From: Novosphingobium sp.
Lineage (GTDB): Bacteria > Pseudomonadota > Alphaproteobacteria > Sphingomonadales > Sphingomonadaceae
Reading direction: 5' to 3'
Assembly (NCBI RefSeq): GCF_024642085.1
Contig: NZ_JAHEBV010000007.1
Span: forward strand, 28,740-92,739
DNA: 64,000 nt
Positions 12,353 to 50,362 of this stretch are shown here, piece after piece. Numbering within the stretch: position 1 is the first letter of the stretch; each line of letters starts with the position of its first letter. The notes below the pieces were generated by a model, which was not told the origin of the DNA, searched no databases, and saw only the letters and a program-made list of their open reading frames with translations. The translations under genes were made by a program, and so were the position numbers.

Positions 12353-13978
12353 ATGATCAAGCATGCCTTTTTTGCCGGCGCAGCCGCGCTGGCGCTGACC
12401 GCCATCTCCACCGCTGCCCATGCCGATGCCAGCGATGCCCAGATCGATGCGGTGATCGATGAAGGCCTGAACCGCAGCGAAGCGATGACCACTGCCTCGG
12501 CCCTGATGGACGGAATCGGCCCGCGCCTGACCAATTCTGAAGGCTATCGCCGCGCCGCCGACTGGGCGATCGCGCGGTTTGATTCGCTTGGCTTGCAGAA
12601 CGTCCATCGCGAAGCGTTCGATTTCGGCCTGGGCTGGAACATCGACAGCTACAGCGCCCGCATGGTCGAGCCGCGCATGGTCAGCATGACCGCCATACCC
12701 GTGGCCTGGTCTCCGCCGACCAATGGTACGCTGCGCGCGCCGGTCATCGTCGCCCCGGTTGGCAATCCTGCCCGGTTCGAACTTTGGAAGCAGGAATGGA
12801 AGGGCAAGCTGGCGGGCAAGATCGTGATGACATCGATGCCCGGCAGCACGACCGAATCGGACAAGCCGGTGTTCCGCCGCCTGGATGACAAGGACCTTGG
12901 CGGCTATGACAAATACAGCCTGCCCAGCTTTGATCCCGATGCCACCGACCGCCGACTGCGCCGGGTCAACGTACCGCTGGATATCAGCCGCTTTCTGAAA
13001 GACGAAGGCGCACTGGCGATGGTCAAGATCAGCTACCGCGACGGTATGCTGGTCCACGGTGAGGGCTACAATTACCGCGCTGGCGAAACTCTGGCCTTGC
13101 CTGCCTTTGAACTGGCGGCAGAGGATTACCGCCGCCTGGTCCGCCTGGCCAAAACGGGCACCGCGCCGCAGATCGAATTGAACCTTGCCGCCCGCTATGA
13201 CGACAAGGTCACCCGCGCAGAAAACCTGTTCGGCGATATCGCCGGCAGCGATCCCAAGGCCGGATACGTAATGGCCGGCGCACATTTCGATTCGTGGATC
13301 GCCGGCGACGGCGCGGCGGACAATGGCGCGGGCAGCGTGGTGGTAATCGAAGCTGCGCGCATCCTCAAACGTCTGGGCGTCAAGCCGCGCCGCACGATCC
13401 GATTTGCCCTGTGGACCGGCGAGGAACAGGGTCTGCTCGGCAGCCGCGCATATATCGAACAGCATCTGGCTACCCGCCCTGTCGATAGCAAGCTAACCGG
13501 CATCGCCGCCTATTCGGCCTGGGCCAACGCCTGGCCGATCACTCCCAAGGCGGGCTACGGCGATCTCAAGGCCTATTTCAATCTGGACAACGGCGGCGGC
13601 AAGATCCGCGGAGTCTATGCGGAAAACAACATTGCCGCCGAACCGATGCTCAAAAAGTGGCTCAGCCCGTTTGATGGTCTGGGTGCAAGCCGGGTCGTGA
13701 CCAGCAAGACCGGCGGGACTGACCACGTCTTCATGCAGGCGATCGGGCTGCCCGGATACCAGTTCATCCAGGACCCGCTCGACTATGACAGCCGGGTCCA
13801 CCATTCCAACCTGGATACGGTCGACCATTTGCGCGGCGACGATCTGCGCCAGGCGGCCACGATCATGGCCGCGATGCTGCTGCAGGCTGCGAACAGCGAC
13901 AAGGACCTGCCGCGCCAGCCGCTGCCGGCCAAGCCCGTGCCGACCGATCCGTTTAAGGTGGCCGATCCGGATGAATAA
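12353..13978 (+). CDS. Secreted M28 family metallopeptidase (carboxypeptidase Q-like)
   Basis: Signal peptide, GAHFDSW, DNGAG, GEEQGLLGS, NLDNG, TDH, HHSNLD. Confidence 0.88.
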   Translation: MIKHAFFAGAAALALTAISTAAHADASDAQIDAVIDEGLNRSEAMTTASALMDGIGPRLTNSEGYRRAADWAIARFDSLGLQNVHREAFDFGLGWNIDSYSARMVEPRMVSMTAIPVAWSPPTNGTLRAPVIVAPVGNPARFELWKQEWKGKLAGKIVMTSMPGSTTESDKPVFRRLDDKDLGGYDKYSLPSFDPDATDRRLRRVNVPLDISRFLKDEGALAMVKISYRDGMLVHGEGYNYRAGETLALPAFELAAEDYRRLVRLAKTGTAPQIELNLAARYDDKVTRAENLFGDIAGSDPKAGYVMAGAHFDSWIAGDGAADNGAGSVVVIEAARILKRLGVKPRRTIRFALWTGEEQGLLGSRAYIEQHLATRPVDSKLTGIAAYSAWANAWPITPKAGYGDLKAYFNLDNGGGKIRGVYAENNIAAEPMLKKWLSPFDGLGASRVVTSKTGGTDHVFMQAIGLPGYQFIQDPLDYDSRVHHSNLDTVDHLRGDDLRQAATIMAAMLLQAANSDKDLPRQPLPAKPVPTDPFKVADPDE

Positions 13979-14001
13979 GAAGGTGCCGGGGCGCGAATCT
14001 C

Positions 14002-14030
14002 TTGACTTCGCGGCCTGGCACCCATAACGG
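14002..14030 (+). promoter_or_regulatory. sigma70-type promoter of rpmJ
   Basis: TTGACT-N17-TAACGG, with GAATC at 13995-13999. Confidence 0.6.
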
Positions 14031-14074
14031 CCCCACTTCCAATTTCAGCGGGATTTGCCCGCACGAGAGAAACC

Positions 14075-14200
14075 ATGAAGATTCGCAACAGCCTCAAGTC
14101 GCTCAAGGACCGCCACCGGGACAACCGCGTGATTCGCCGCCGTGGCCGGACCTATGTGATCAACAAGACCAACCGCCGCTTCAAGGCGCGCCAGGGCTAA
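14075..14200 (+). CDS. rpmJ: 50S ribosomal protein L36 (zinc-free type B); absent from the ORF track
   Basis: Translates to [41 protein letters not shown]. Confidence 0.97.
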
Positions 14201-14298
14201 ACTGCTCTGGCTGGCGGGCCGGACCCGCCGGTTGCCAACGGCCCGCCTCCGCACAGGGGAGCGGGCCGCTGCCGTTTATGACCGGGAGGTATGGCGCC

Positions 14299-14910
14299 AT
14301 GACACAGATCGAAGCGGTCGTGTTCGATGTCGGCAATGTGCTGGTGCGCTGGGATCGGCGGCTGCCTTTTGTCGGCCATTTTACTGATCCCGAAGACCTT
14401 GATCGTTTCCTTGAGGAGGTTATCCCCCTGTCATGGCACGCCGAGCACGACGCTGGCCGGCCCGCCGCTGAAATGGTGGCTGAACGCAGCGCGCTGTTCC
14501 CGGACCATGCCGCACTGATCGCCCGGTGGTTCACCCATTTTCACGAATCAGTGCCCGGGCCGGTGCCCGGTAGTCCCGAACTGGTGGAAGCCCTGCATGC
14601 CCGCGGCGTTCCGCTTTACGCGATTACCAATTTTGGCGCGGATACCTGGGCCGGATTTTCCCCGACTTTCAACTTGGCACAGCGCTTTCGCGACATCGTG
14701 GTGTCTGGGGTGGAGAAGCTGTCCAAGCCTGACCCGGCGATCTTTGCACTGGCAGCGGGGCGGTTTGGCCATGCGCCAGGGACGATGCTGTTTGTCGACG
14801 ATAGTCTGCCCAATGTGGAGGCCGCCCGCGATTGCGGCTGGCATGCCCATCACTTTGTCGATGCGGACGGGCTGGAGGAAGATCTGCGCAACCGGCGCTT
14901 GCTGGCCTGA
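14299..14910 (+). CDS. HAD family phosphatase
   Basis: VVFDVGNVL motif I, ITNF, KPDPAIF, FVDD. GGGAGG RBS. Confidence 0.9.
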   Translation: MTQIEAVVFDVGNVLVRWDRRLPFVGHFTDPEDLDRFLEEVIPLSWHAEHDAGRPAAEMVAERSALFPDHAALIARWFTHFHESVPGPVPGSPELVEALHARGVPLYAITNFGADTWAGFSPTFNLAQRFRDIVVSGVEKLSKPDPAIFALAAGRFGHAPGTMLFVDDSLPNVEAARDCGWHAHHFVDADGLEEDLRNRRLLA

Positions 14911-28091: not shown

Positions 28092-28808
28092 ATGAACCGA
28101 ATCCGCAATATCGTGATCCTGACTGGAGCGGGCGTGTCTGCTGAAAGTGGCATCGACACCTTTCGTGCCGGTACCGATGGCGGTCCCAGCCTATGGGAGC
28201 AGCACCGCATTGAAGACGTTGCAACGCCTGAAGGCTTTGTCCGTGATCCCGATCTGGTCCACCGGTTCTACGACATGCGCCGTGCCGCCATTCAGCAGAA
28301 GCAGCCCAACGCTGCGCATATGGCACTTGCCCGGCTGGACGCTGTCTGGACGGACAATCTGCTGATTGTCACGCAGAACGTCGATGACCTGCACGAGCGC
28401 GCCGGCGCACGCCGCGTCCTGCACATGCACGGCGAGCATCTTAAAGCATGGTGCACCGCCTGCAGGTCACGCAGCGCTTGGCGTGAAGCTCTGTTCGGAC
28501 GGCCCCCCTGCCCCGTGTGTCAGTCGCGGTCACTGCGGCCCGATGTGGTCTGGTTCGGCGAGATGCCCTACGAAATGGACCGGATCCATGCTGCCCTGCT
28601 CGATGCCGATCTGTTTGTCAGCATCGGCACGTCTGGCGCGGTTTATCCTGCTGCCGGATTCGTCCGTAACGCCCGTGATCTGGGTGCGCAAACGCTCGAA
28701 CTAAATCTCGAACCTAGCCAAGGTTCAGCCATGTTCCATGAAACGCGCCTGGGCAAAGCGGGCGATCTGGTCCCAGCCTGGGTAGCGGAGATATTAGGCG
28801 GCGGGTGA
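28092..28808 (+). CDS. cobB: NAD-dependent protein deacylase (class III sirtuin)
   Basis: GAGVSAESG, TQNVDDLHE, HMHG, CxxC..CxxC, RPDVVWFGE, GTSGAVYPA; FYxxR acyl-pocket motif. Confidence 0.92.
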   Translation: MNRIRNIVILTGAGVSAESGIDTFRAGTDGGPSLWEQHRIEDVATPEGFVRDPDLVHRFYDMRRAAIQQKQPNAAHMALARLDAVWTDNLLIVTQNVDDLHERAGARRVLHMHGEHLKAWCTACRSRSAWREALFGRPPCPVCQSRSLRPDVVWFGEMPYEMDRIHAALLDADLFVSIGTSGAVYPAAGFVRNARDLGAQTLELNLEPSQGSAMFHETRLGKAGDLVPAWVAEILGGG

Positions 28809-39949: not shown

Positions 39950-42325
39950 TTAAAAGTCGACGCCGACCTTGACCCCGAAAAGTTGCGGCCGAGTTGGATA
40001 GGTTCGCGCATAAGGTGCGCAGAACCCCGTCGCGCAGAACGTGCCGCGTCCCAGTTCGCCGCGCGTGTCGAAGGCATTTTGGATGAACGCTTCGACACGC
40101 CATTTATCCCAATGGACTCCGGCGGAAAAATCGACGGAAGTGAACGCTTTGGTAAAACCAAGGGCGATGGCTTCGGAGTCAAGCAAAGCGGACCGTGTGC
40201 CGCCTTGGTGGCTGACGACTGTCTGGATGAAGCCCTTGCCGTTCGCCATCGGCGCTTCGTAACGTGCGGTAACGCTGCCCTTGAACTTGGGCATTACCGG
40301 CAGCCTGGTGCCCGCAGGTGCCACCGGCGGCACCAGAGGATCGCAGACAATGTTCTTGGTGACCGGGTCGACAGCGCAAAGATCGGTTGTGGTTTTGGCG
40401 TCGACATAGGTCCCTGACGCCGACAGCGAAAGGCCGCCAATCCGCGTCGAAATATCACCTTCGATACCATAAATGCGCGCATTGCCGGCGTTATAGGTGT
40501 TGGTGATGCCGTTGTTGTTGAGCGGTACCAGCCCGAATTGCACGTTCTTCCACTTTTCGTAGAATGCCGCGCCGTTGAAATAGACGTTGCCGAAATGCGT
40601 CTTCCAACCAACCTCATAATTGTCGAGCTTGTCGGACTTGAATGGGTCAACCCCGGGTCGGCGATTGTTTCCGCCGGGGCGGAAACCGCGTGAAACGGTG
40701 GCGTAAAGCATCAGGTTATCGCTCGGCTTGAAACGAAGGCCACCGCGCCAGATCACACCGCTTTCGACTTGTTTCTTGTCAATGCTAACGCACGGCGATT
40801 CAGGATATGTCGTACCCGCAATGCAAGCGCGCACACTGCTTCCGCCATTAAAACCCGAAAATCCGTACAAGGTATTGTCAGCAATATAACCACGGATGCC
40901 CGCGATCGCAGTAAGCGTAGGGGCCAGATCGTATTCGGCCTGCGCGAACATCGCGTAGTCCCGGTCTTTGCGGAAGATTCGTGAACGAAACACCGTGTCA
41001 TTGTCAAAAACGCCCGGGAACCAGCTTGGCAAAGGCGCAGCTGTGATCCCTGCAACCTTGTAGTCGGCCCTGACCGTGTCGGTCTGGTGCTGCATGAACA
41101 GACCGGCGGTCAGGCGAAACGGCATGTCGCTTGGTGAGGAGACGCGTAGTTCCTGGGTCAGCTTGGTGTACTTGTCCCCCAGAACAACGCTTTGTGTCGG
41201 GTCGAGGAACCCGCCTTTCCCGTCAGGGAAGTAGGTCGCATAAGAACCATAGGTGTCATAGGCGACCGAATAGTAGGAATAGTCCGAAGTGCTATCGACC
41301 TTGCGTTCAAAATAGCCTCCCGAATAGGTCACGTCCCAATCGCTCAGCTTGCCTTGGATGGTTAGTGCAGCCTGCCACCAACGATCGTGGTTGCGGCTAG
41401 GCAGGAAGTCGGTAACGGCAAGGTCACCCTTGGTCGGATCGAACAAGAACCCGCCATTCGCGACCTGATTCTGATAGATGAACTGCGTCGTCGCGGTCCA
41501 GTTGTCATCCAGATCGATTTTCAGTGCCGCGCGGCCACCATAGGTTTCGACATCGTTGTAGTCGTTTTTGACCAGTGCGCTGTTGTTGACGGTCACGTTG
41601 GTAGTTGGGTCTGGATCGTCGAGCGTAAAGGTACGGGTATTTGGAAGATTGTCGATGTAGCCGCCCTGGCGGTCATAGAAGCCTACCACGCGAAGAGCCG
41701 CACTGTCGCCTAGCGGAAAATTGACATAGCCCTCGGCCGAGCCGCCGAAATCGCCCTTGCCATATTTGCTGAGTTGCAAGTCGACGCTGCCCGACGTCTC
41801 GCCGAGCTTTGGTGCGTTAGTGATCAGGCGCAGCACGCCCGACAGTGAGCTCGCGCCGAAGAGGGTACCCTGGGGGCCAGCCAGCGCTTCGACACGGGCT
41901 ACGTCATAAACGTGGAAATCAACCGTTCCGCCGATCGTGGTGACCGGGATTTCATCGATGTACATCGAACTGGTCGGCAGCGGACCGATATGAAGGCCAT
42001 CACCGCCGGACGATACGCCGCGAAAGAAGATTTGCGCCTGGCTGGGACCGAAAGACTGGAAGCTGACGCTGGGCAGCAACTTGGCATAGTCGTCAAAAGA
42101 CTGGACGTTGGCCTGTTCAAGCTTTTGCGCACCCAATGCAGTTATGCTGATGGGGACGTCCTGCAACCGTTCTTCACGGCGCTGCGCAGTCACCACGATC
42201 GCATCGTCGTCACTTGCTTCGTCAGTCGCCGAAGCGTCCTGCGCAAAGGCCGCAGATGGGATAATCAAGGCAGTCGAGGACAGCAGGGCGAACAGGCTGC
42301 GTCGAAATTTCAAATGAGTCTTCAT
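39950..42325 (-). CDS. TonB-dependent receptor
   Basis: Signal peptide, TonB box 'IVVTAQRRE', plug 'EALAGPQGTLFG', C-terminal 'FGVKVGVDF'. Confidence 0.95.
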   Translation of the reverse strand: MKTHLKFRRSLFALLSSTALIIPSAAFAQDASATDEASDDDAIVVTAQRREERLQDVPISITALGAQKLEQANVQSFDDYAKLLPSVSFQSFGPSQAQIFFRGVSSGGDGLHIGPLPTSSMYIDEIPVTTIGGTVDFHVYDVARVEALAGPQGTLFGASSLSGVLRLITNAPKLGETSGSVDLQLSKYGKGDFGGSAEGYVNFPLGDSAALRVVGFYDRQGGYIDNLPNTRTFTLDDPDPTTNVTVNNSALVKNDYNDVETYGGRAALKIDLDDNWTATTQFIYQNQVANGGFLFDPTKGDLAVTDFLPSRNHDRWWQAALTIQGKLSDWDVTYSGGYFERKVDSTSDYSYYSVAYDTYGSYATYFPDGKGGFLDPTQSVVLGDKYTKLTQELRVSSPSDMPFRLTAGLFMQHQTDTVRADYKVAGITAAPLPSWFPGVFDNDTVFRSRIFRKDRDYAMFAQAEYDLAPTLTAIAGIRGYIADNTLYGFSGFNGGSSVRACIAGTTYPESPCVSIDKKQVESGVIWRGGLRFKPSDNLMLYATVSRGFRPGGNNRRPGVDPFKSDKLDNYEVGWKTHFGNVYFNGAAFYEKWKNVQFGLVPLNNNGITNTYNAGNARIYGIEGDISTRIGGLSLSASGTYVDAKTTTDLCAVDPVTKNIVCDPLVPPVAPAGTRLPVMPKFKGSVTARYEAPMANGKGFIQTVVSHQGGTRSALLDSEAIALGFTKAFTSVDFSAGVHWDKWRVEAFIQNAFDTRGELGRGTFCATGFCAPYARTYPTRPQLFGVKVGVDF

Positions 42326-42418: not shown

Positions 42419-44056
42419 TCAGGCGTTGCCCGCTTGCCACGCATCCGGCACGTCTGGATAGCAGCGTAACACATCACCAAGCGCGATTTTGAGCGGATCA
42501 AGCTGGTGATCGATATTGCGCCACCGGCCCTCGCCGCTGCGATTTATTGGCTGACGCACTTGTTCACTGCTGGGCGTACGAACCGGTCGGCGATTGCTGG
42601 CAAAATCGATACAGGCACGCTCGAACGGAAGGTTCAGGGCGGAGAGCAAAAGACCGATTTCCTGTTCTGGATCGTCGAGCAGGCGCTCGTGGATCACCCG
42701 GTGTATCCGTCCCGGCAGGACACGGTCGAAGTGCGCCATCAGGCGAACATAGTCGCCATAGTAATGACCGATGTCACCAAGATCATAGGAAAATGCCTGA
42801 CCGCGGGCAAAATGCTGGCGGAAATTGGAGTAGCCGCAATCAAGCGGGTGTCGCCTTGCATCGATGATTCGTGCGTTCGGCAAAATCAAGTGGATCAAGC
42901 CGGCATGCATCCAGTTGTTGGGAAGCTTATCGATGAACAACGGCTTGCCTTCACGGCGCTGAATCCGGGTTGTCGCGAGATAGCTCTCGCCCAGTGCGGA
43001 CAACTGGGCTGGCGCAAGGGAATCCAGGAGACGCGGGTATGCACCTTCACGGGCAAGCCGATTGACGATGCCTGGTATGTCGGGAAGTTCCATCGTTCCT
43101 TCTACCATGCTGTGGCTGGACAGGATCTGCTCGACAAGGGTCGATCCGGCTCGCGGCATGCCAACGATGAAGACCGGATCGGGCGCCTGGCATCCCTGTC
43201 CCTTGCGCCTGGCCACAAACTCGGGCGTGAACAGTTCGATGATCCGGTCAACCGCGCGCGCGGTGTCTGCGGCATCATAGGGCAACTCGCAGCGCCGTAG
43301 GCGATTGGCTTCCAGATAGTGATCGAACGCCGCCGCAGCCTGGCCGGAATCTTCGAGCGACTTGGCCAGCGCGAAATGCAGATGGTAGCGGTCGTCCGCG
43401 CTAATGCCCTGATCGCCAAGCGCGGTTTCGATCGCAGCACGGTCGGCCGCATCCATCCGGGCGGTCTTGAGGTTGGCGATGCTCCACCATGCTTCGCCGA
43501 AACCAGGGCGTTTGGCGATCGCAGTGCGGTATGCGGCAATTCCATCATCCAGCCTGCCAACGGTCTTGAGTGTATGCCCGTAGCTGAGCCAGATCGGCGC
43601 AGGGCTGTGTTCGCGCGACAGGATGTCCTCATACAGCGCAAGCGCTTCGTCGAACTCGCCGATGCGGCCCGCAACTGCCGCGCGCAGGGTCGCATGTGAA
43701 GGATCGTCAGGCTCCTCGCGGGATACCAGGTCCAGCTCGTTCAATGCCTCCGCCTCACGGTTTTGGCGGTGCAGCAACAGAGCCAGGTTTGAGCGAGCCG
43801 CTGTAAAACCGGGGGCGATCTCAAGCGCCCGGCGTAGTAACGTCTCTGCATCGCGCAGCCGCCCGATCCGTCCGGCCAATTCGGCTAGCATCCGGATAGC
43901 GTACACATCGAACGGATCAGCCTTGAGATGCTGGCGCAAAAGGGGTTCGGCCCTGCTCAGTTCGTTGGCATTGAGCGCCGCGGCTGCCTCGATCAGGCGA
44001 GGATGGTAGCCAGACGGATCCAGTTTGGGCGGCACGGCAAAGCGATCATCGGTCAT
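42419..44056 (-). CDS. TPR-repeat sulfotransferase family protein
   Basis: N-terminal TPRs, 5'-PSB 'GMPRAGSTLVEQIL', 'DKLPNN', 3'-PB 'RHPLDCGYSNF'. No signal peptide. Confidence 0.9.
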   Translation of the reverse strand: MTDDRFAVPPKLDPSGYHPRLIEAAAALNANELSRAEPLLRQHLKADPFDVYAIRMLAELAGRIGRLRDAETLLRRALEIAPGFTAARSNLALLLHRQNREAEALNELDLVSREEPDDPSHATLRAAVAGRIGEFDEALALYEDILSREHSPAPIWLSYGHTLKTVGRLDDGIAAYRTAIAKRPGFGEAWWSIANLKTARMDAADRAAIETALGDQGISADDRYHLHFALAKSLEDSGQAAAAFDHYLEANRLRRCELPYDAADTARAVDRIIELFTPEFVARRKGQGCQAPDPVFIVGMPRAGSTLVEQILSSHSMVEGTMELPDIPGIVNRLAREGAYPRLLDSLAPAQLSALGESYLATTRIQRREGKPLFIDKLPNNWMHAGLIHLILPNARIIDARRHPLDCGYSNFRQHFARGQAFSYDLGDIGHYYGDYVRLMAHFDRVLPGRIHRVIHERLLDDPEQEIGLLLSALNLPFERACIDFASNRRPVRTPSSEQVRQPINRSGEGRWRNIDHQLDPLKIALGDVLRCYPDVPDAWQAGNA

Positions 44057-44131
44057 GGGCCCAGCAACAAACATGGTGACGCCGTTCGATCAAGCGGTAG
44101 GTTGCGCGTCATCACCGGCGAGGAGCGATAG

Positions 44132-45439
44132 ATGACGGGGCCGAACAAAGCCAAGCTGGGTTTCTGGGCGCTGCTGGCGCTGGTAGTCGGCAACATGATT
44201 GGATCGGGCATCTACCTGTTGCCGGCCACGCTGGCCCCGTTGGGCTGGAATCAGGCGGCGGGATGGATCGTGACCCTTGGCGGCGCGCTGTGCCTGGCGG
44301 CAGTGTTCGCCGGACTGGCGGCGCGCGTACCGCGCGCCGGCGGGCCCTATGCCTATGCCGATGCCGCGTTTGGCCCGGTGACCGGTTATACTGCGGCCTG
44401 GGCATATTGGGTGATGACCTGGGTGGGAAATGGAGCCATCGCGATTGCAGTGGTCAGCAACCTCAGCCTGATCTTTCCGGTTATTGGCACGATCGCCGGT
44501 TTGCCCGCCCTGCTGGCCATCGCCTTTGTCTGGCTGCTCACCCTGGTTAACCTGCGCGGGGTGCGCGAAGCGGGGCAGGTGCAGACCGTCACCACCGTGC
44601 TCAAGGTTCTGCCGCTGATCGCGCTGATTATCCTGGCGCTGTGGTTTGTGCTGAGCGGAGCGCCCCGCGCACCAGATCCTGGAATAGCGCTTTCGGGCAG
44701 CACGATAGCAACGGCTGCGGGACTGACCTTCTGGGGATTTCTTGGCCTTGAAAGCGCAACTGTCCCTGCCGACAAGGTTGAGAATGCCGCACGCAACGTG
44801 CCCCGCGCGACGATGATTGGCGTTGTCCTGACGGGCCTTGTGTACCTCGGCATATCGCTGGCATTCGCACTTTATATGCCGGTGGACGAGGCGGCCCGAT
44901 CGCCCGCGCCGGTGGCAGATTTCCTGGGCAAGACGTTCGGCGCTGGTGTGGCAGTAGTGGTCGCCCTGTTCGCCGCGATCAGCGCCTTCGGCGCGCTTAA
45001 CGGCTGGATCCTGGTTCAGGGCGAAATGCCCTGGGCAATGGCGCGGGGCGGTGTATTCCCGCGCTGGTTCGCCAAAGAAAATGCCAACGGCACTCCGGTG
45101 CGCGGACATCTGGTGTCCAGCGTGCTGCTGACCGGCATGATCCTGATCAATTCGCAAAAGGGCATGGGCAAACTGTTTGAGTTCATCGGCTCGGTCAGCA
45201 TCGCCGCCGGGCTGGTCGCCTACCTTCTCAGCGCCCTGGCGGCGATCCGCTTGGTCGGGGATGACCGGCGGCTGACCGCCGCCGCGCTGGTCGCCGCTGC
45301 TTTCACGTTGTGGGCCGAATGGGGCCTTGGCTGGCAGGCAAACCTTTATGGCGGGGCGCTGATCCTGGCCGGACTGACGCTTTACCCCTTGGTCAGGACC
45401 GCAGGATCTTCCGGATCAGCGGCCGGTCAGCCAGGATAG
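44132..45439 (+). CDS. APC-superfamily basic amino acid/polyamine (APA) permease
   Basis: NMIGSG (TM1), WGFLGLESA (TM6) and GALNGWIL (TM8) align with the AdiC/PotE substrate-site motifs. Confidence 0.9.
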   Translation: MTGPNKAKLGFWALLALVVGNMIGSGIYLLPATLAPLGWNQAAGWIVTLGGALCLAAVFAGLAARVPRAGGPYAYADAAFGPVTGYTAAWAYWVMTWVGNGAIAIAVVSNLSLIFPVIGTIAGLPALLAIAFVWLLTLVNLRGVREAGQVQTVTTVLKVLPLIALIILALWFVLSGAPRAPDPGIALSGSTIATAAGLTFWGFLGLESATVPADKVENAARNVPRATMIGVVLTGLVYLGISLAFALYMPVDEAARSPAPVADFLGKTFGAGVAVVVALFAAISAFGALNGWILVQGEMPWAMARGGVFPRWFAKENANGTPVRGHLVSSVLLTGMILINSQKGMGKLFEFIGSVSIAAGLVAYLLSALAAIRLVGDDRRLTAAALVAAAFTLWAEWGLGWQANLYGGALILAGLTLYPLVRTAGSSGSAAGQPG

Positions 45440-46991
45440 CCCGCGCCGCGTTGTGGCCCGGAGCGCCCGTGACCCCGCCGCCGGGGTGCGTACCGGAACC
45501 GCACATGTAAAGTCCCCTGATCGGCCCGCGATAATCGCCATGGCCCAGCACCGGGCGCGCCGCCCACAGCTGGTCGATGCCCATCGTGCCGTGGAAGATG
45601 TCCCCGCCGATCAGTCCGAACTTGCGTTCCAGGTCAAGCGGCGAATGGATCTGCCGGGCGATCACCGATCCCTTGAAGTTTGGCGCGTGGTCGGTGACCG
45701 TGTCGATGATCAGATCAGCCACTTCTTCACGGTGCGCATCCCAGTCCAGCGTGGGATCGAACTGCTGGCAGAACAGCGATGCGACGTGCTGGCCGGGCGG
45801 GGCCAGGCTGTCATCGACGGTCGAAGGGATCTTGATCTCGACAATCGGCTTTTTCGACCAGCCGTGCTGCTGCGCATCGATAAAGGCCTGGTCCATGTAA
45901 TCCATACCGGGCGCGATAATGATCCCGGCGGTGTGATGCTCGCCTTGCGCCTTGCCCGGAAGGACCGAAAAGCTGGGCAGCTCGGAAAGTGCCACGTTCA
46001 TGCGGAAGGTGCCCGACCCGGTCTTGTATGTCTTCATCCGCCGCTTGAAATCATCGTCCAGATCGGCCCCGTCAACCAGCTGGCGATAGAGCAGCGCCGG
46101 GCCGACATTGGCCGCCACGATCGGCGCGACCAGTTCCTCGCCGCCGTCAAGCTTGACCCCGCGCACCTTGCCGCCATCGACCAGCAATTTTGCCACCGGC
46201 GCTTCCAGGGTGATTTCTACCCCGGCATCTTCGCAGGCGCGGGCCATGGCCTGCGTAATTGCGCCCATGCCGCCAACCGCGTGGCCCCAGGCACCCAGCT
46301 TGCCGTTAACTTCACCGAACACGTGGTGCAGCAGGACATAGGCACTTCCCGGCGTTGACACCCCGGCGTAATTGCCAACCACCGCGTCAAAGGCGAAGGC
46401 AGATTTGACGTGGTCGTCCTCAAACCAGGCGTCCAGAAAATCGCGCGCCGACTTGGTGAAGATCGCCAGCAGATCGCGCTGGGTGGCCATGTCCAGCCTG
46501 GCCATCGGCCAGCCCTGCTTTGCTGCCGCCAGCAGCGCATTCAGCCCGCCGCCGACATTGGGCGGTGCCTGCAGCGACAGTTCGCGCAAAACATTGGCGA
46601 CCTTTTCCAGAGCGGCATCGTAGGCGGGATACGCTGCCGCATCCTTTTTGGAGAAACGGGCGAACTCGGCCTCGGTCCGGCCCGGACCTCCACCAAGCTT
46701 GAGGTACGTGTCGGGGAATGGAAAAAAGTTGCTGATTGTCCGTTCGATCACGCGGTAGCCATAGTCGTGCAGCTTCATGTCGGCGATGACCTTGGGCCGC
46801 AGCAGGCTGACGGTGTAACTGGCGGTTGAATTGCGGAAACCGGGATGAAACTCTTCGGTCACTGCCGCCCCGCCGACAATATGGCGCCGCTCCAGCACAC
46901 GTACCCGCATTCCTGCCTTGGCCAGGTAAAAGGCGCAGGTCAGGCCGTTGTGGCCCCCACCGATAATCAGCGCGTCATAGGTCTTGGTCAT
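45393..46991 (-). CDS. COG1233/PYROXD2-like FAD-dependent oxidoreductase
   Basis: GGGHNG, LERR..VGGAAVTEE, GMGAITQAM, GDIFHG, GLYMCGSGTHPGGGVTGAPG. Confidence 0.9.
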   Translation of the reverse strand: MTKTYDALIIGGGHNGLTCAFYLAKAGMRVRVLERRHIVGGAAVTEEFHPGFRNSTASYTVSLLRPKVIADMKLHDYGYRVIERTISNFFPFPDTYLKLGGGPGRTEAEFARFSKKDAAAYPAYDAALEKVANVLRELSLQAPPNVGGGLNALLAAAKQGWPMARLDMATQRDLLAIFTKSARDFLDAWFEDDHVKSAFAFDAVVGNYAGVSTPGSAYVLLHHVFGEVNGKLGAWGHAVGGMGAITQAMARACEDAGVEITLEAPVAKLLVDGGKVRGVKLDGGEELVAPIVAANVGPALLYRQLVDGADLDDDFKRRMKTYKTGSGTFRMNVALSELPSFSVLPGKAQGEHHTAGIIIAPGMDYMDQAFIDAQQHGWSKKPIVEIKIPSTVDDSLAPPGQHVASLFCQQFDPTLDWDAHREEVADLIIDTVTDHAPNFKGSVIARQIHSPLDLERKFGLIGGDIFHGTMGIDQLWAARPVLGHGDYRGPIRGLYMCGSGTHPGGGVTGAPGHNAARAILADRPLIRKILRS

Positions 46992-47109
46992 GAAGGGTTC
47001 GATCTCGCTTGGAAGTTCACACAAACATCACAGGGTACTGGAAATAAAAAATGCGCCGATTCCCGCGGCAAAGCGGATGATGACAGCGGCCGGCAAAGTA
47101 GGAAAGCGA

Positions 47110-48309
47110 TCACCGCCGGCTCCACCCTGGTGCAGGGGCAAAGGGCTGGCGCGCTTCGGGGATCAGGGTGCGGATCTTGCGGGCAAAGCTGCGCAGGCAA
47201 ACCTCGCTTTGTGCAATCGGTCCGGTGCCATAGGTCTTGCTGGCCATACCTTGCTGGACGCGCGAAATCAGCCAGGTGTCCTCGGCATTGACGACGCGGT
47301 TGATCCGCCAGTTGGCATAGCGCGCCAGTTTCATTGCACGCTGCTGGCCCGGCGGGGTGTAGGTATCGGGCAGGCAATAGGCCACTTCGCGCAGCATGCA
47401 GGTGGTCGGCGTCAGCGGCAGCCACTGCATGAAATCGATCTGATCGGCATAGATGTCAAAGGCCATGTTGGGCCACAGCTTGTAGTACAGCCAGCGCCCC
47501 TGCGCCTCGGCAGGCAGGTGATCCGCGCTGGGCCGGTGCGCGGCATAGAAGCGCTCCCAGAAGTTCTGCCGGCTTGACCTTTCGACATCGCCGTACAGCC
47601 GGTCGGCCCAGCCGTGCGCTTCGATCCGGTAGCTTTTGCCGACCAGCCGGGTCAGCCCGTCGTGCGCGACGGGAATGTGGAGGTTGTCCGAATAATTATC
47701 GCCGACGTTCTTCCAGTTGACCCCGCGCGGGCGCAAGCGAACCTGGCCCATCGGCTGCATTTCGGCAAAGCGGTAGGGCGCAATCTCGGCCTCGAAGGGC
47801 GCCATCATTTCAGCTACCGAGGGAAAGCCGCGATCTTCCAGCCGGACGAACACAAATCCGTTCCATTGTTCGACGGCAACCGGCGCCAGGCCGTTTTCTT
47901 CAAGCTTCAGCGCCGGGTATTCGCCCTTCATCGGCACCCCGGTCAGCCGCCCGTCAGTTTCATACGTCCAGGCGTGATAAGGGCAGACAAGCTTGCGGGT
48001 GCAGCCAGCCGGGCCTTCTACCAGCCGCATCGCACGGTGGCGGCAGACATTGGTGAAAGCGCGCACTGCGCCGTCTTCACCCCGGATGACAATTACGCTT
48101 TCGCCGCAAAAATCGATCGTGCGGTAATCGCCGGGCTGCGCCAGCTCGTTTAGATGGCAGACGATTTGCCAGCTGGGACGGAACACGCGGTCAAGCTCAA
48201 GCGCGAAGAACTCGGGATCGGAATAGATCCAGCCCGGCAGGCTGACATCGGCGTCGGGGTCGGGCGCAGCGCTGACGATATCGGCAAAGGCGTGTTCAGG
48301 ATTGCCCAT
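47110..48309 (-). CDS. Rieske non-heme iron oxygenase alpha subunit (choline monooxygenase/GbcA/Stc2-like)
   Basis: CRH...CPYH Rieske motif, NWK, DNLHIPVAH, C-terminal ED. No beta subunit or reductase adjacent. Confidence 0.9.
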   Translation of the reverse strand: MGNPEHAFADIVSAAPDPDADVSLPGWIYSDPEFFALELDRVFRPSWQIVCHLNELAQPGDYRTIDFCGESVIVIRGEDGAVRAFTNVCRHRAMRLVEGPAGCTRKLVCPYHAWTYETDGRLTGVPMKGEYPALKLEENGLAPVAVEQWNGFVFVRLEDRGFPSVAEMMAPFEAEIAPYRFAEMQPMGQVRLRPRGVNWKNVGDNYSDNLHIPVAHDGLTRLVGKSYRIEAHGWADRLYGDVERSSRQNFWERFYAAHRPSADHLPAEAQGRWLYYKLWPNMAFDIYADQIDFMQWLPLTPTTCMLREVAYCLPDTYTPPGQQRAMKLARYANWRINRVVNAEDTWLISRVQQGMASKTYGTGPIAQSEVCLRSFARKIRTLIPEARQPFAPAPGWSRR

Positions 48310-48329
48310 GGCGGCGCACGACTCCGAAA

Positions 48330-48355
48330 GCTTGTTGGACAAATGTACAACAAGC
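48330..48355. promoter_or_regulatory. Palindromic TetR/BetI-type operator
   Basis: GCTTGTTGGAC-AAAT-GTACAACAAGC (one mismatch) in the 61-bp divergent gap. Confidence 0.8.
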
Positions 48356-48370
48356 GTTAGACCGGCGCAA

Positions 48371-48967
48371 GTGAACACGATCCCTGCCTTCACCCGCGCC
48401 GAACCCGATGCCCGCCGTGCCAGCCTGATCGCCGCCGCCGCGCAGGTACTGGCGCGTCACGGCGTCGCCGGCACCAGCGTGCGCGCAATCGCTGTTCAGG
48501 CGGGGGTATCGCCCGGTCTGGTCGGTCACTATTTTGACGGAATCGACGCGCTGATCGCGGAAACCTATGCGCATGTCGAAGCGCAAGTCGCCGCTGCCAT
48601 CGATGCTGCTGTGGCCAGCGCCGGACCGGACCCGCGCGCCCGGCTTGATGCCTTCGTTACCGCCAGCTTTGCTCCGCCCGTCGCCTCTCCCGACCTGCTC
48701 GCAACATGGATCGCGTTCTGGAGCCTGGTGCCTTCGCGTCCTGCCATCGCCGGCCAGCATGATGAGCAATACGCTCAGTTCCGCGCGCGGGTGGAAGGGC
48801 TGCTGGGCGATTGCGGACTTGCCCGCGAACGGCAGCGCCTTGCTGCCATCGCCATCACCGCACTGGTGGATGGATTGTGGCTGGAACTGTGCCTTTCCCC
48901 CCACGCCTTCAGCGCGCAAGAAGCGGGGGGAATCGCACGCGCAAACCTTGACGCGCTACTTCGATAG
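48371..48967 (+). CDS. TetR family repressor with BetI-type C-terminal domain
   Basis: HTH 'SVRAIAVQAGVSPGLVGHYF', 'WIAFWS', 'ALVDGLWLE'. GTG start. Confidence 0.9.
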   Translation: MNTIPAFTRAEPDARRASLIAAAAQVLARHGVAGTSVRAIAVQAGVSPGLVGHYFDGIDALIAETYAHVEAQVAAAIDAAVASAGPDPRARLDAFVTASFAPPVASPDLLATWIAFWSLVPSRPAIAGQHDEQYAQFRARVEGLLGDCGLARERQRLAAIAITALVDGLWLELCLSPHAFSAQEAGGIARANLDALLR

Positions 48968-50362
48968 GGCCGTGAACAGGCTGGTGTAATAAATCAGCGC
49001 CGGGCGCGTGTTGCGCAAGGCAATGCGTTCGTTAAGCCCGTGCGAGAAATCATCCGAATCCTTGGAAAACAGGGGGCTGGCGCCATAGCTTGGCACGCCG
49101 AGCGCGCGGAACCACATCGAATCGGATGCGCCCGATGCCTGCGAAGGAAACATCGGCGTCCCCGGCCATGCCTTGGCCAGCGCGGTTTGCGCCGCAGCGA
49201 TGAAATCCGGGCGCAGCGGCGACGCCGGCGATGCGATCGAATCCTCACCCGATACAGCCGTGACCTTCAGCCCCGGCATGGCCGCGATCTTTTCCAGCGC
49301 TGCGCGGATTTCCTCGCGACTGTGGCCGGGAAAAATGCGGCAATTGACGTTGGCGGTGACCCGCTGGGGCAGCGCATTCTGCGCATGGCCACCCGAAATC
49401 ATTGTGGGCACGCAGGTTGTTCCCACCTTGCCCACATAGGCCGGATTGGCGCGCAAGGTTTCCAGCGCCGCCGCGTCCTGGGGGTTGGCGGCAAAGGCGC
49501 GCATCGCCCCGGCCAGCGCGGGGTTTACCTCGAACCGGGCGGCCTGTTCGAAATAGGCCTTGGTCAGCGGGCTGAGTTCAGCCGGGAAGCGATAAGACCC
49601 GACCCGGTCCAGCGCCTGGGCGAGCTGGACGATGGCGTTGTCGGGCCGCGGGGCGGAACTGTGCCCGCCGGGATTGGTCATTTCCAGTTCGTAATCGTCG
49701 TAGGTCTTCTCGGCACCTTGCCAAGTCCAGTACAGCGGCTTTCCGCTTGTCTCATCAAAGGTGCCCCCGCCGCCGTCTATGTTGATTACCATTTCGGCAT
49801 TCTTCAACCGCTCGGCGATCAGCCGGCTGGTTTTCATCGTTGTTTCCTCGTCGCCCGAAAACTCAAGCACCACAGTCCGGCGCGGCCGGTAACCCGCCTG
49901 GCGCAAGGCAATCAGCGTGGCTGTGCCCAGCGCCGCATCGAACTTCATGTCGCTCGCCCCGCGGCCAAACAGGTAGCCGTTTTCAACCACCGGGGTGAAG
50001 GGATCGCGGGTCCAGTCCTTGGGATCGGCTGCGACCACGTCGATGTGCCCGGAAATGACCAGCGGCCCCAGCGAAGGGTCGCTGCCCGGCCAGGTCGCCA
50101 CCAGATAGGCCGTATCGTCGACCGGCACGATCTCGACATCCTTGTCCAGCCATCCCGCCTGGGTAAGCGCGGCCTTGACCACCTGCTGCGCCTCGGCCGT
50201 GCGGTTTTCCGGCCCGCGCACCGAGCGGATCGCGATCAGCCGCTTGGCCAGATCAAGCGTTTGCGCCTCGGCTTTCGTCAGGTCCGCAGCACGCTGACTG
50301 GCAACAGCGGGGCTGGCAGCAATGGCAAGGATCGGGATGAACGGCGCAATAATCTGACGCAT
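48956..50362 (-). CDS. Secreted M20/M25/M40 metallo-hydrolase
   Basis: Signal peptide, SGHIDVV, GRGASDMK, GDEE, GGHSSAP, GASDS, HGLNERI. Confidence 0.9.
   Translation of the reverse strand: MRQIIAPFIPILAIAASPAVASQRAADLTKAEAQTLDLAKRLIAIRSVRGPENRTAEAQQVVKAALTQAGWLDKDVEIVPVDDTAYLVATWPGSDPSLGPLVISGHIDVVAADPKDWTRDPFTPVVENGYLFGRGASDMKFDAALGTATLIALRQAGYRPRRTVVLEFSGDEETTMKTSRLIAERLKNAEMVINIDGGGGTFDETSGKPLYWTWQGAEKTYDDYELEMTNPGGHSSAPRPDNAIVQLAQALDRVGSYRFPAELSPLTKAYFEQAARFEVNPALAGAMRAFAANPQDAAALETLRANPAYVGKVGTTCVPTMISGGHAQNALPQRVTANVNCRIFPGHSREEIRAALEKIAAMPGLKVTAVSGEDSIASPASPLRPDFIAAAQTALAKAWPGTPMFPSQASGASDSMWFRALGVPSYGASPLFSKDSDDFSHGLNERIALRNTRPALIYYTSLFTALSK

Follow-up and report, generated by a model that had tools for sequence, protein, structure and literature searches.

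A PYROXD2-family flavoprotein and its conserved Rieske oxygenase partner in Novosphingobium: a candidate N-demethylation pair

The 64,000-nucleotide stretch of Novosphingobium sp. DNA analysed here (the window; positions 28,740 to 92,739 of contig NZ_JAHEBV010000007.1, assembly GCF_024642085.1) carries on its reverse strand a gene for the alpha subunit of a Rieske non-haem-iron oxygenase (47110..48309, 399 amino acids, ATG at 48309), followed by a gene for a flavoprotein binding flavin adenine dinucleotide (FAD; 45393..46991, 532 amino acids, ATG at 46991). On sequence grounds, the flavoprotein is a true member of the PYROXD2 family, and its pairing with the oxygenase in Sphingomonadaceae goes beyond chance. 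With a probability slightly better than even (about 0.55), the pair forms the cytoplasmic core of a conserved, TetR-controlled locus for taking up and using a cationic, N-methylated amino acid or amine, which would undergo sequential N-demethylation with the Rieske oxygenase acting first.

Family membership of the flavoprotein

The flavoprotein is cytoplasmic, with one dinucleotide-binding motif, at its N-terminus. A protein of Novosphingobium kunmingense is 94% identical to it, and in a pairwise comparison it is 41% identical to the oyster PYROXD2 (XP_011443058; E 8e-133, residues 2–522 against 40–580). In an exhaustive HMMER search of 1.8 billion representatives, clusters with the oyster and mayfly PYROXD2 and a choanoflagellate protein were found among its best matches, the animal PYROXD2 clusters ranking in the top 20–40. 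Identity to the oyster and mayfly proteins, to which the homology extends over the full length, amounts to 41–43%, and the motifs GGGHNGL and GSGTHPGGGV are common to the bacterial and animal proteins. Animal PYROXD2 is, however, a mitochondrial orphan flavoprotein, while the window protein has no mitochondrial presequence and its gene forms an operon-like pair with that of a Rieske oxygenase, an enzyme that animals lack. In a maximum-likelihood tree the eukaryotic PYROXD2 proteins are nested within the bacterial PYROXD2-like group, all in one ingroup.

The carotenoid comparator in this tree was the genome's own CrtI (contig C15), which is 25% identical to the flavoprotein and separated from it by branches of more than 4 substitutions per site; references for CrtO, CrtISO, and RetSat were not in the tree, and curated cut-offs of hidden Markov models were used. 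Every carotenoid model scored the flavoprotein below its cut-off (CrtO 257.4 bits against 1000, crtI_fam 122.6 against 238.1, and carot_isom, i.e., CrtISO, 74.8 against 586.9), and the NCBIfam score profile of animal PYROXD2 is identical in kind. Thus, although the superfamily and the overall fold are shared with CrtI, CrtO, and CrtISO, an identity as a carotenoid desaturase, isomerase, or ketolase was rejected on account of the low scores and the distance from CrtI. Moreover, CrtI is encoded on a contig other than that of the window, and the context of the locus holds no carotenoid, lipid, or isoprenoid genes. A preliminary description of the window, made from its sequence alone, had called the flavoprotein PYROXD2-like and had set beforehand a phylogeny of PYROXD2 versus carotenoid enzymes as the way to challenge this assignment; the protein falls with PYROXD2, and the assignment holds.

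The flavoprotein belongs to the flavin amine oxidase superfamily, with a match to Pfam Amino_oxidase (PF01593) of 55.6 bits against a gathering score of 19.8. Its AlphaFold2 model (predicted local distance difference test score 92) matched in Foldseek first the carotenoid desaturases CrtD/CrtI and second the flavin amine oxidases, comprising monoamine oxidase, nicotine oxidoreductase NicA2, and putrescine oxidase (E ~1e-19, template modelling score 0.6–0.7), as well as cyclohexylamine oxidase. The other matches among the top 50 were uncharacterised oxidoreductases and Rab GDI chains, with no two-Rossmann NAD(P)H reductase among those 50. Dinucleotide-binding models match the protein at residues 6–44 only, and neither Pfam nor the fold revealed an Fe–S domain or a separate NAD(P)H domain. 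Without a separate NAD(P)H-binding domain in its sequence and predicted structure, the protein does not appear to fall into the class of Rieske-oxygenase reductases, be it of the FNR or of the glutathione reductase type.

The Rieske oxygenase and the conservation of the pair

The Rieske oxygenase has a Rieske domain (PF00355, 76.5 bits) and a Ring_hydroxyl_A domain (PF00848, 146 bits), both scoring above the Pfam cut-offs. The [2Fe–2S] ligands are C89/H91/C109/H112, arranged in a CxH...CxxH motif; the iron ligands are H211, H216, and probably D344, the last aligned to the iron-binding region of Stc2 within a weak second alignment segment, while D208 is the bridging aspartate. The Rieske motif, the 2-His-1-carboxylate site, and the bridging carboxylate identify the protein as the alpha subunit of a Rieske non-haem-iron oxygenase, and the motif NWKNVGDNYSDNLHIPVAHD is kept among its orthologues. 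The top NCBIfam match is GbcA, at 139.6 bits and hence below the cut-off of 670, and the closest solved structures are those of CntA (6y8j, 126 bits) and Stc2 (3vca, 105 bits). By these comparisons, CntA, GbcA, and Stc2 are its closest characterised relatives.

Among 151 Sphingomonadaceae genomes, a flavoprotein orthologue was found in 67 and a Rieske orthologue in 44, each of the 44 having the flavoprotein as well (hypergeometric p = 2e-21, kinship not corrected for). The two genes are neighbours on one strand, the Rieske gene upstream, in 40 of the 44 genomes and unlinked in the other four. The pairing is beyond chance. The adjacency persists while the surrounding genes have repeatedly been reshuffled in order and orientation. 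The flavoprotein occurs without a Rieske orthologue in 23 of the 67 genomes; the presence of the Rieske gene only where there is a flavoprotein, and of the flavoprotein often alone, is consistent with an accessory early step that supplies a general enzyme acting later. A wider set recurs around the pair, composed of a permease of the basic amino acid/polyamine antiporter (APA) type, a BetI-like TetR regulator, an M20 peptidase, a TonB receptor, and a TPR-sulfotransferase-like protein; it accompanies the pair in many genera and also in Robiginitomaculum, two Steroidobacteraceae, and an unclassified proteobacterium. The preliminary description proposed that this context could be informative about the chemistry of the PYROXD2 family, and the conserved Rieske link lends support to that proposal.

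Two single loci are worth mentioning. In L036 (9185–15480 in G051:C16) the flavoprotein gene adjoins the sulfotransferase-like/TonB-receptor pair and there is no Rieske gene, so that the flavoprotein and the receptor pair stay linked even without the oxygenase. At G121:C1:664536-666664 the flavoprotein match is split in two and the Rieske match is truncated; this genome is 86% complete and 7% contaminated, and the copy may be decaying, or the assembly may be at fault.

In all, 115 flavoprotein loci were sampled over Proteobacteria, Acidobacteriota, Planctomycetota, Nitrospirota, and others. In 83 of them, as in animals, the flavoprotein has no Rieske neighbour, and flavoproteins from paired and alone loci intermingle in the tree. 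The stand-alone genes have no conserved neighbour past lineage-level synteny (PrmA, SpeE-like, and housekeeping genes). Two genomes carry second, more diverged PYROXD2-like genes, 39% (L015 12690–17497, G112) and 59% (L038 7941–10787, G051) identical to the window protein, which adjoin canonical Group V Rieske oxygenases with the ENYxECYHC motif; the second locus in L015 is a full cluster with a permease, a TetR regulator, an amidohydrolase, and a sulfotransferase-like gene. In L103 a PYROXD2-like gene lies beside an E-bridged Rieske oxygenase.

A free-standing GcvT-family protein is encoded beside PYROXD2-like genes in six Acidobacteriota loci (L111, L112, L114, L119, L120, and L123) and one gammaproteobacterial locus (L097). 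The module in these loci consists of a Rieske gene and a GcvT-family gene divergent from two paralogous PYROXD2-like genes, together with an APC permease. The top NCBIfam matches of the GcvT-family proteins are to the C-terminal region (folate domain) of trimethylamine N-oxide demethylase, GcvT, SoxA, and DmdA. In known flavoprotein N-demethylases the one-carbon acceptor is a folate-binding GcvT module, and the independent occurrence of PYROXD2-like genes next to other Rieske subtypes and GcvT proteins counts in favour of N-demethylation. The acidobacterial modules (L111–L123) resemble the window locus in that this flavoprotein family goes together with an APC permease and a Rieske oxygenase there too. 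They differ from it in having GcvT and two PYROXD2-like paralogues, where the window locus encodes a single flavoprotein and lacks GcvT. Its Rieske oxygenase is of another subtype (about 30% identity), and the locus adds the TonB receptor, the sulfotransferase-like protein, the M20 peptidase, and the TetR regulator. L112 and L120 carry in addition a threonine-aldolase-like enzyme of the pyridoxal phosphate-dependent kind.

In some loci prmA is found immediately 3' of the PYROXD2-like gene or close to it (L077, L083, L085, L090, and L094 of Nitrobacteraceae/Xanthobacteraceae, and also L019 and L038). As the methyltransferase of ribosomal protein L11, PrmA produces trimethyl-lysine residues; its proximity is suggestive of a methyl-lysine link, though it may reflect no more than lineage synteny. 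In the Hyphomicrobiales loci the PYROXD2-like gene has a divergent, fused MFS/spermidine-synthase-like gene upstream of it.

A possible N-demethylation route and competing explanations

In the proposed route, the Rieske oxygenase would hydroxylate an N-methyl group inaccessible to a flavin, most likely a quaternary or hindered one, in analogy to the glycine betaine, stachydrine, and carnitine oxygenases. Its electrons would come from a shared, unlinked ferredoxin reductase (contig C33) through a ferredoxin, either the Rieske-type one of C64 or the adrenodoxin-type one of C19. The N-methyl amine so formed, tertiary or secondary, would next be oxidised by the flavoprotein to an iminium, and the hydrolysis of the latter would give the demethylated amine and formaldehyde. 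Such a division of labour is the logic of betaine catabolism, in which a Rieske enzyme takes a methyl off the quaternary nitrogen, a step not open to a flavin, and a flavoprotein handles the tertiary and secondary amines; GbcAB followed by DgcAB/Sox and Stc2 followed by Stc3/4 are its precedents. Like GbcAB–DgcAB/SoxBDAG and Stc2–Stc3/4, the window locus has a related Rieske oxygenase and a flavoprotein together, a BetI-type regulator, and a dedicated transporter. The betaine and stachydrine systems, however, employ DAO/DadA or OYE (old yellow enzyme) flavoproteins, while the flavoprotein of the window has a CrtI/PYROXD2 fold and its locus no dedicated reductase and no GcvT-type domain. By analogy, the locus can be read as another form of Rieske-plus-flavoprotein N-demethylation, in which the fold of the flavoprotein would be new to that chemistry. 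The folate-coupled type of flavoprotein N-demethylase (DMGDH, SARDH, SoxABDG) was rejected, as a GcvT domain or subunit is absent from the window locus and appears only in distant relatives.

The preliminary description left two options, an oxidase acting on the demethylated product and an unusual electron partner of the oxygenase. The stand-alone occurrence of the flavoprotein, its amine-oxidase-type fold, and the GcvT link elsewhere favour the former; the latter is weakened by the same three observations and by the lack of local reductases throughout the genome. The flavoprotein is thus probably a pathway partner and not an electron partner or reductase.

From this context we infer the N-demethylation itself, the order of the reactions, and the kind of substrate. 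The APA-type permease, the BetI-like regulator, and the periplasmic peptidase fit this picture, and N6-tri-, di-, and mono-methyl-lysine are our leading guess for the substrate because of the permease type and the genetics of human PYROXD2. The human variant rs2147896 in PYROXD2 explains about 50% of the variance of plasma N6-methyllysine and 48% of that of N6,N6-dimethyllysine (PMC8109053), and PYROXD2 signals have been reported also for trimethyllysine, N-methylpipecolate, and trimethylamine (PMC8109053, PMC13352909, PMC8777681). PYROXD2 is a human mitochondrial disease gene, and its common variant is missense (PMC8777681, PMC8109053). The genome-wide association signals that the preliminary description cited are confirmed in the literature (PMC8109053, PMC13352909, PMC3169529). 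The papers on PYROXD2 found up to 2026 deal with genetics and localisation only, none assigning a reaction, and no paper linking a Rieske oxygenase with PYROXD2-like genes was found. Should the flavoprotein prove to be an oxidase or dehydrogenase of N-methyl amines, the PYROXD2 family would gain a function and the CrtI fold a new type of chemistry, and a new bacterial route for the breakdown of methylated amino acids would be defined. The locus offers a simple bacterial version of the family context, with one flavoprotein, no GcvT, and one Rieske partner, in a group of hosts that are culturable and genetically tractable, and with a flavoprotein close enough to the oyster enzyme to share 41% of its residues; its conserved, likely TetR operator offers a direct route to the inducer and hence to the substrate.

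Several points speak against the proposed route. The hallmarks of Group V, the quaternary-ammonium oxygenases, comprise in CntA the motif ECYHC with the bridging glutamate E205, and in CntA and Stc2 an adjacent Cys-x-x-Cys pair (PMC10952381). The window oxygenase has instead the motif DNYSDNLHIPVAH, with Asp208 in the place of the bridging glutamate that the betaine and stachydrine enzymes have, and no cysteine pair. Its membership of Group V (GbcA/CntA/Stc2) was rejected for these reasons and because of the low GbcA score; judged by sequence, it forms a clade distinct from Group V, which makes its substrate class, and a quaternary amine as the substrate, less certain. Furthermore, no recurrent ferredoxin or reductase open reading frame was found in about 40 orthologous pair loci, which gave scattered regular-expression matches of low specificity, whereas GbcAB, CntAB, and Stc2–4 keep their reductases adjacent; this leaves room for a role of the flavoprotein as an electron partner. 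The window locus carries neither a GcvT gene nor one for handling formaldehyde; GcvT-family genes number three in the genome, none of them linked to this locus. Co-transcription of the pair in this strain is unproven, given the 118-bp gap with a weak hairpin. The case for N-demethylation by the PYROXD2 family draws on context and genetics. Finally, some loci add a periplasmic amidohydrolase that satisfies the model (equivalog) of the Caulobacter Xaa-Pro dipeptidase, which does not point to lysine and is a reason not to commit to this substrate.

The best of the competing explanations, though an unlikely one, is that the flavoprotein is a pathway partner with another chemistry, i.e., desaturation, isomerisation, ketolation, or oxidative deamination of a compound hydroxylated by the Rieske oxygenase. 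The closest named bacterial family is indeed the CrtO ketolase, matched over the full length, and the carotenoid desaturases lead the structural matches; the lack of Group V hallmarks and the threonine-aldolase-like gene of the acidobacterial clusters, a hint at hydroxy-amino-acid chemistry, point the same way. However, the scores lie far under the carotenoid cut-offs and are matched in profile by those of animal PYROXD2, the locus has an amino-acid-type permease, a BetI-like regulator, and peptidases in place of lipid or isoprenoid genes, the GcvT partners found elsewhere serve demethylases as one-carbon acceptors, and human genetics points to N-methyl-lysines (PMC8109053).

It is still less probable that the flavoprotein is an unconventional reductase passing electrons from NAD(P)H straight to the Rieske centre, in the place of both ferredoxin and reductase. 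Genome-wide profile scans for the ferredoxin and reductase domains PF00111, PF00175, PF00970, and PF14759 gave no match on the window's contig (C13), in keeping with the preliminary description, which had seen no ferredoxin or FNR-type reductase in the window; FNR-type domains (PF00175, PF00970) were found nowhere in the genome (2.9 Mb, 99.99% complete). This favours the reductase explanation, as do the adjacency of the pair in most genomes, the lack of a recurrent reductase gene in its loci, and an in-silico survey that counted 'phytoene dehydrogenase' genes among potential Rieske reductases (PMC5209329). The oxygenase is thus reductase-less, as described earlier, but the argument drawn from it for an unusual electron partner loses weight, as the eight Rieske-oxygenase-sized genes of the genome, located on five contigs, are all without a local reductase. 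The missing local reductase is normal for Sphingomonadaceae and not specific to the window oxygenase. The search for an orphan reductase that had been suggested yielded one, the sole ferredoxin reductase of the genome, which is of the glutathione reductase type (PF14759; C33:~13300-14572) and unlinked to any Rieske oxygenase, along with two ferredoxins, one of the Rieske type (C64) and one of the adrenodoxin type (C19, beside cysteine desulfurase). Since these exist, the absence of FNR domains was not taken as support for an electron partner. PF14759 reductases occur in 42 of 43 genomes that have the pair and in 39 of 42 that lack it, so that their presence shows availability only and does not discriminate. 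The reductase explanation is further opposed by the many loci, and the animals, in which the flavoprotein has no Rieske neighbour, by its single dinucleotide-binding motif and amine-oxidase/CrtI fold with no Fe–S or NAD(P)H domain, and by the GcvT linkage elsewhere, which argues for substrate chemistry. The C33 reductase gene stands at the end of a thiolase/enoyl-CoA-hydratase cluster. At G074:C17:12631-15852, in a genome that has the flavoprotein and lacks a Rieske orthologue, a glutathione-reductase-type ferredoxin reductase gene lies about 1.4 kb from the flavoprotein gene, a single case and probably a coincidence.

An even bolder scheme, in which we place very little confidence, would make the pair a redox-coupled machine: the flavoprotein would oxidise the partly demethylated amine and hand the two electrons, directly or via ferredoxin, to the Rieske centre, so that this later step of the pathway would power the oxygenation of the quaternary or hindered N-methyl group without NAD(P)H, and by extension the PYROXD2 family, including the human protein, would be the N6-methyl-lysine oxidase/dehydrogenase. 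The latter activity is presumably EC 1.5.3.4, which we take to have been long unassigned.

The intercistronic gap (46992..47109, reverse strand, 118 bp), the position of which, like those of the Rieske gene and the in-strand flavoprotein gene, was given exactly in the preliminary description, contains a hairpin at 47070–47054 followed by CATTTTTTAT. The hairpin is weak, with a stem of 5 bp; three terminator-like sites were found in the region against 3.0 expected, the gap folds no better than shuffled sequence, and it is not conserved in close relatives. A larger gap is a trait of the Novosphingobium relatives. In L004, L005, L006, and L044 a differing GC-rich inverted repeat follows right after the Rieske stop codon, the spacer sequences being unrelated; such repeats may be intercistronic stabilisers or attenuators. 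In orthologous pairs the median gap is 23 bp (n=21), and gaps of 2–25 bp in 12 of 21 pairs imply co-transcription. Independent transcription is unlikely as a rule for these pairs, the hairpin being weak and unconserved and most pairs abutting. The hairpin and U-run that the preliminary description had raised as a sign of separate transcription do exist, but as a terminator they are at chance level and unconserved, and were weighed neither way. The explanation that the two genes are mere neighbours, transcribed independently and adjacent by inherited synteny, can hardly be sustained: the gap with its hairpin and T-run, the GC-rich hairpins of close relatives, and the four genomes with unlinked genes speak for it, but the adjacency outlives the reshuffling of its surroundings and reaches Hyphomonadaceae-like and Steroidobacteraceae genomes, the co-occurrence is strict (44/44), short gaps prevail, and the hairpin does not exceed chance.

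Neighbouring genes and the candidate operator

The permease gene (44132..45439, forward strand) codes for an APC-superfamily protein of the APA type, with an AA_permease_2 match of 187.7 bits. It scores 276.6 bits with TIGR00905 and 191–246 bits with the AdiC, CadB, and PotE models, all under the cut-offs, and is syntenic with the pair in 24 loci. The permease and flavoprotein genes are convergent and their 3' ends overlap by 47 bp (45393–45439), which leaves no room for terminators between them; similar convergent overlaps occur in relatives, of about 40 bp in L004 and about 20 bp in L007.

On the other side, divergent from the Rieske gene, lies a gene for a BetI-type TetR-family regulator (48371..48967, forward strand) with TetR_N and TetR_C_6 domains. 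Two BetI models match it at 111.7 and 107.2 bits, the second score being close to its cut-off of 118. A palindrome, 48327..48358 (no strand), with the core TTGTTGGACAAATGTACAACAA at 48332–48353, is situated 23–44 nt upstream of the Rieske ATG. Its 24-bp consensus cTTGTTrTACnnnnGTAyAACAAg recurs in the TetR–Rieske spacer of at least 10 loci of several genera, and it occurs just once in the window (0.02 expected) and just once in the genome; it is likely to be the TetR operator. Its position suggests that the Rieske promoter is the regulated one and that TetR starts at the GTG at 48371, within a reading frame open from 48302. As no further copies were found in the window or the genome, the regulon cannot be extended to the permease, peptidase, or reductase genes.

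The TetR gene is convergent with that of a periplasmic M20 metallopeptidase/deacylase (48956..50362, reverse strand, 468 amino acids), the two overlapping by 12 bp (48956–48967). The latter protein has M20 and M20_dimer domains and a signal peptide, with the N-terminus MRQIIAPFIPILAIAASPAVASQ; it matches NF006596 at 561 bits, over the cut-off of 349, and is syntenic with the pair in 13 loci. Two further cluster companions are encoded on the reverse strand, a TonB-dependent outer-membrane receptor (39950..42325) with Plug and TonB_dep_Rec_b-barrel domains, and a protein with TPR and Sulfotransfer_3 domains (42419..44074), whose gene is found in synteny with the pair in the majority of Sphingomonadaceae loci and in one Steroidobacteraceae locus.

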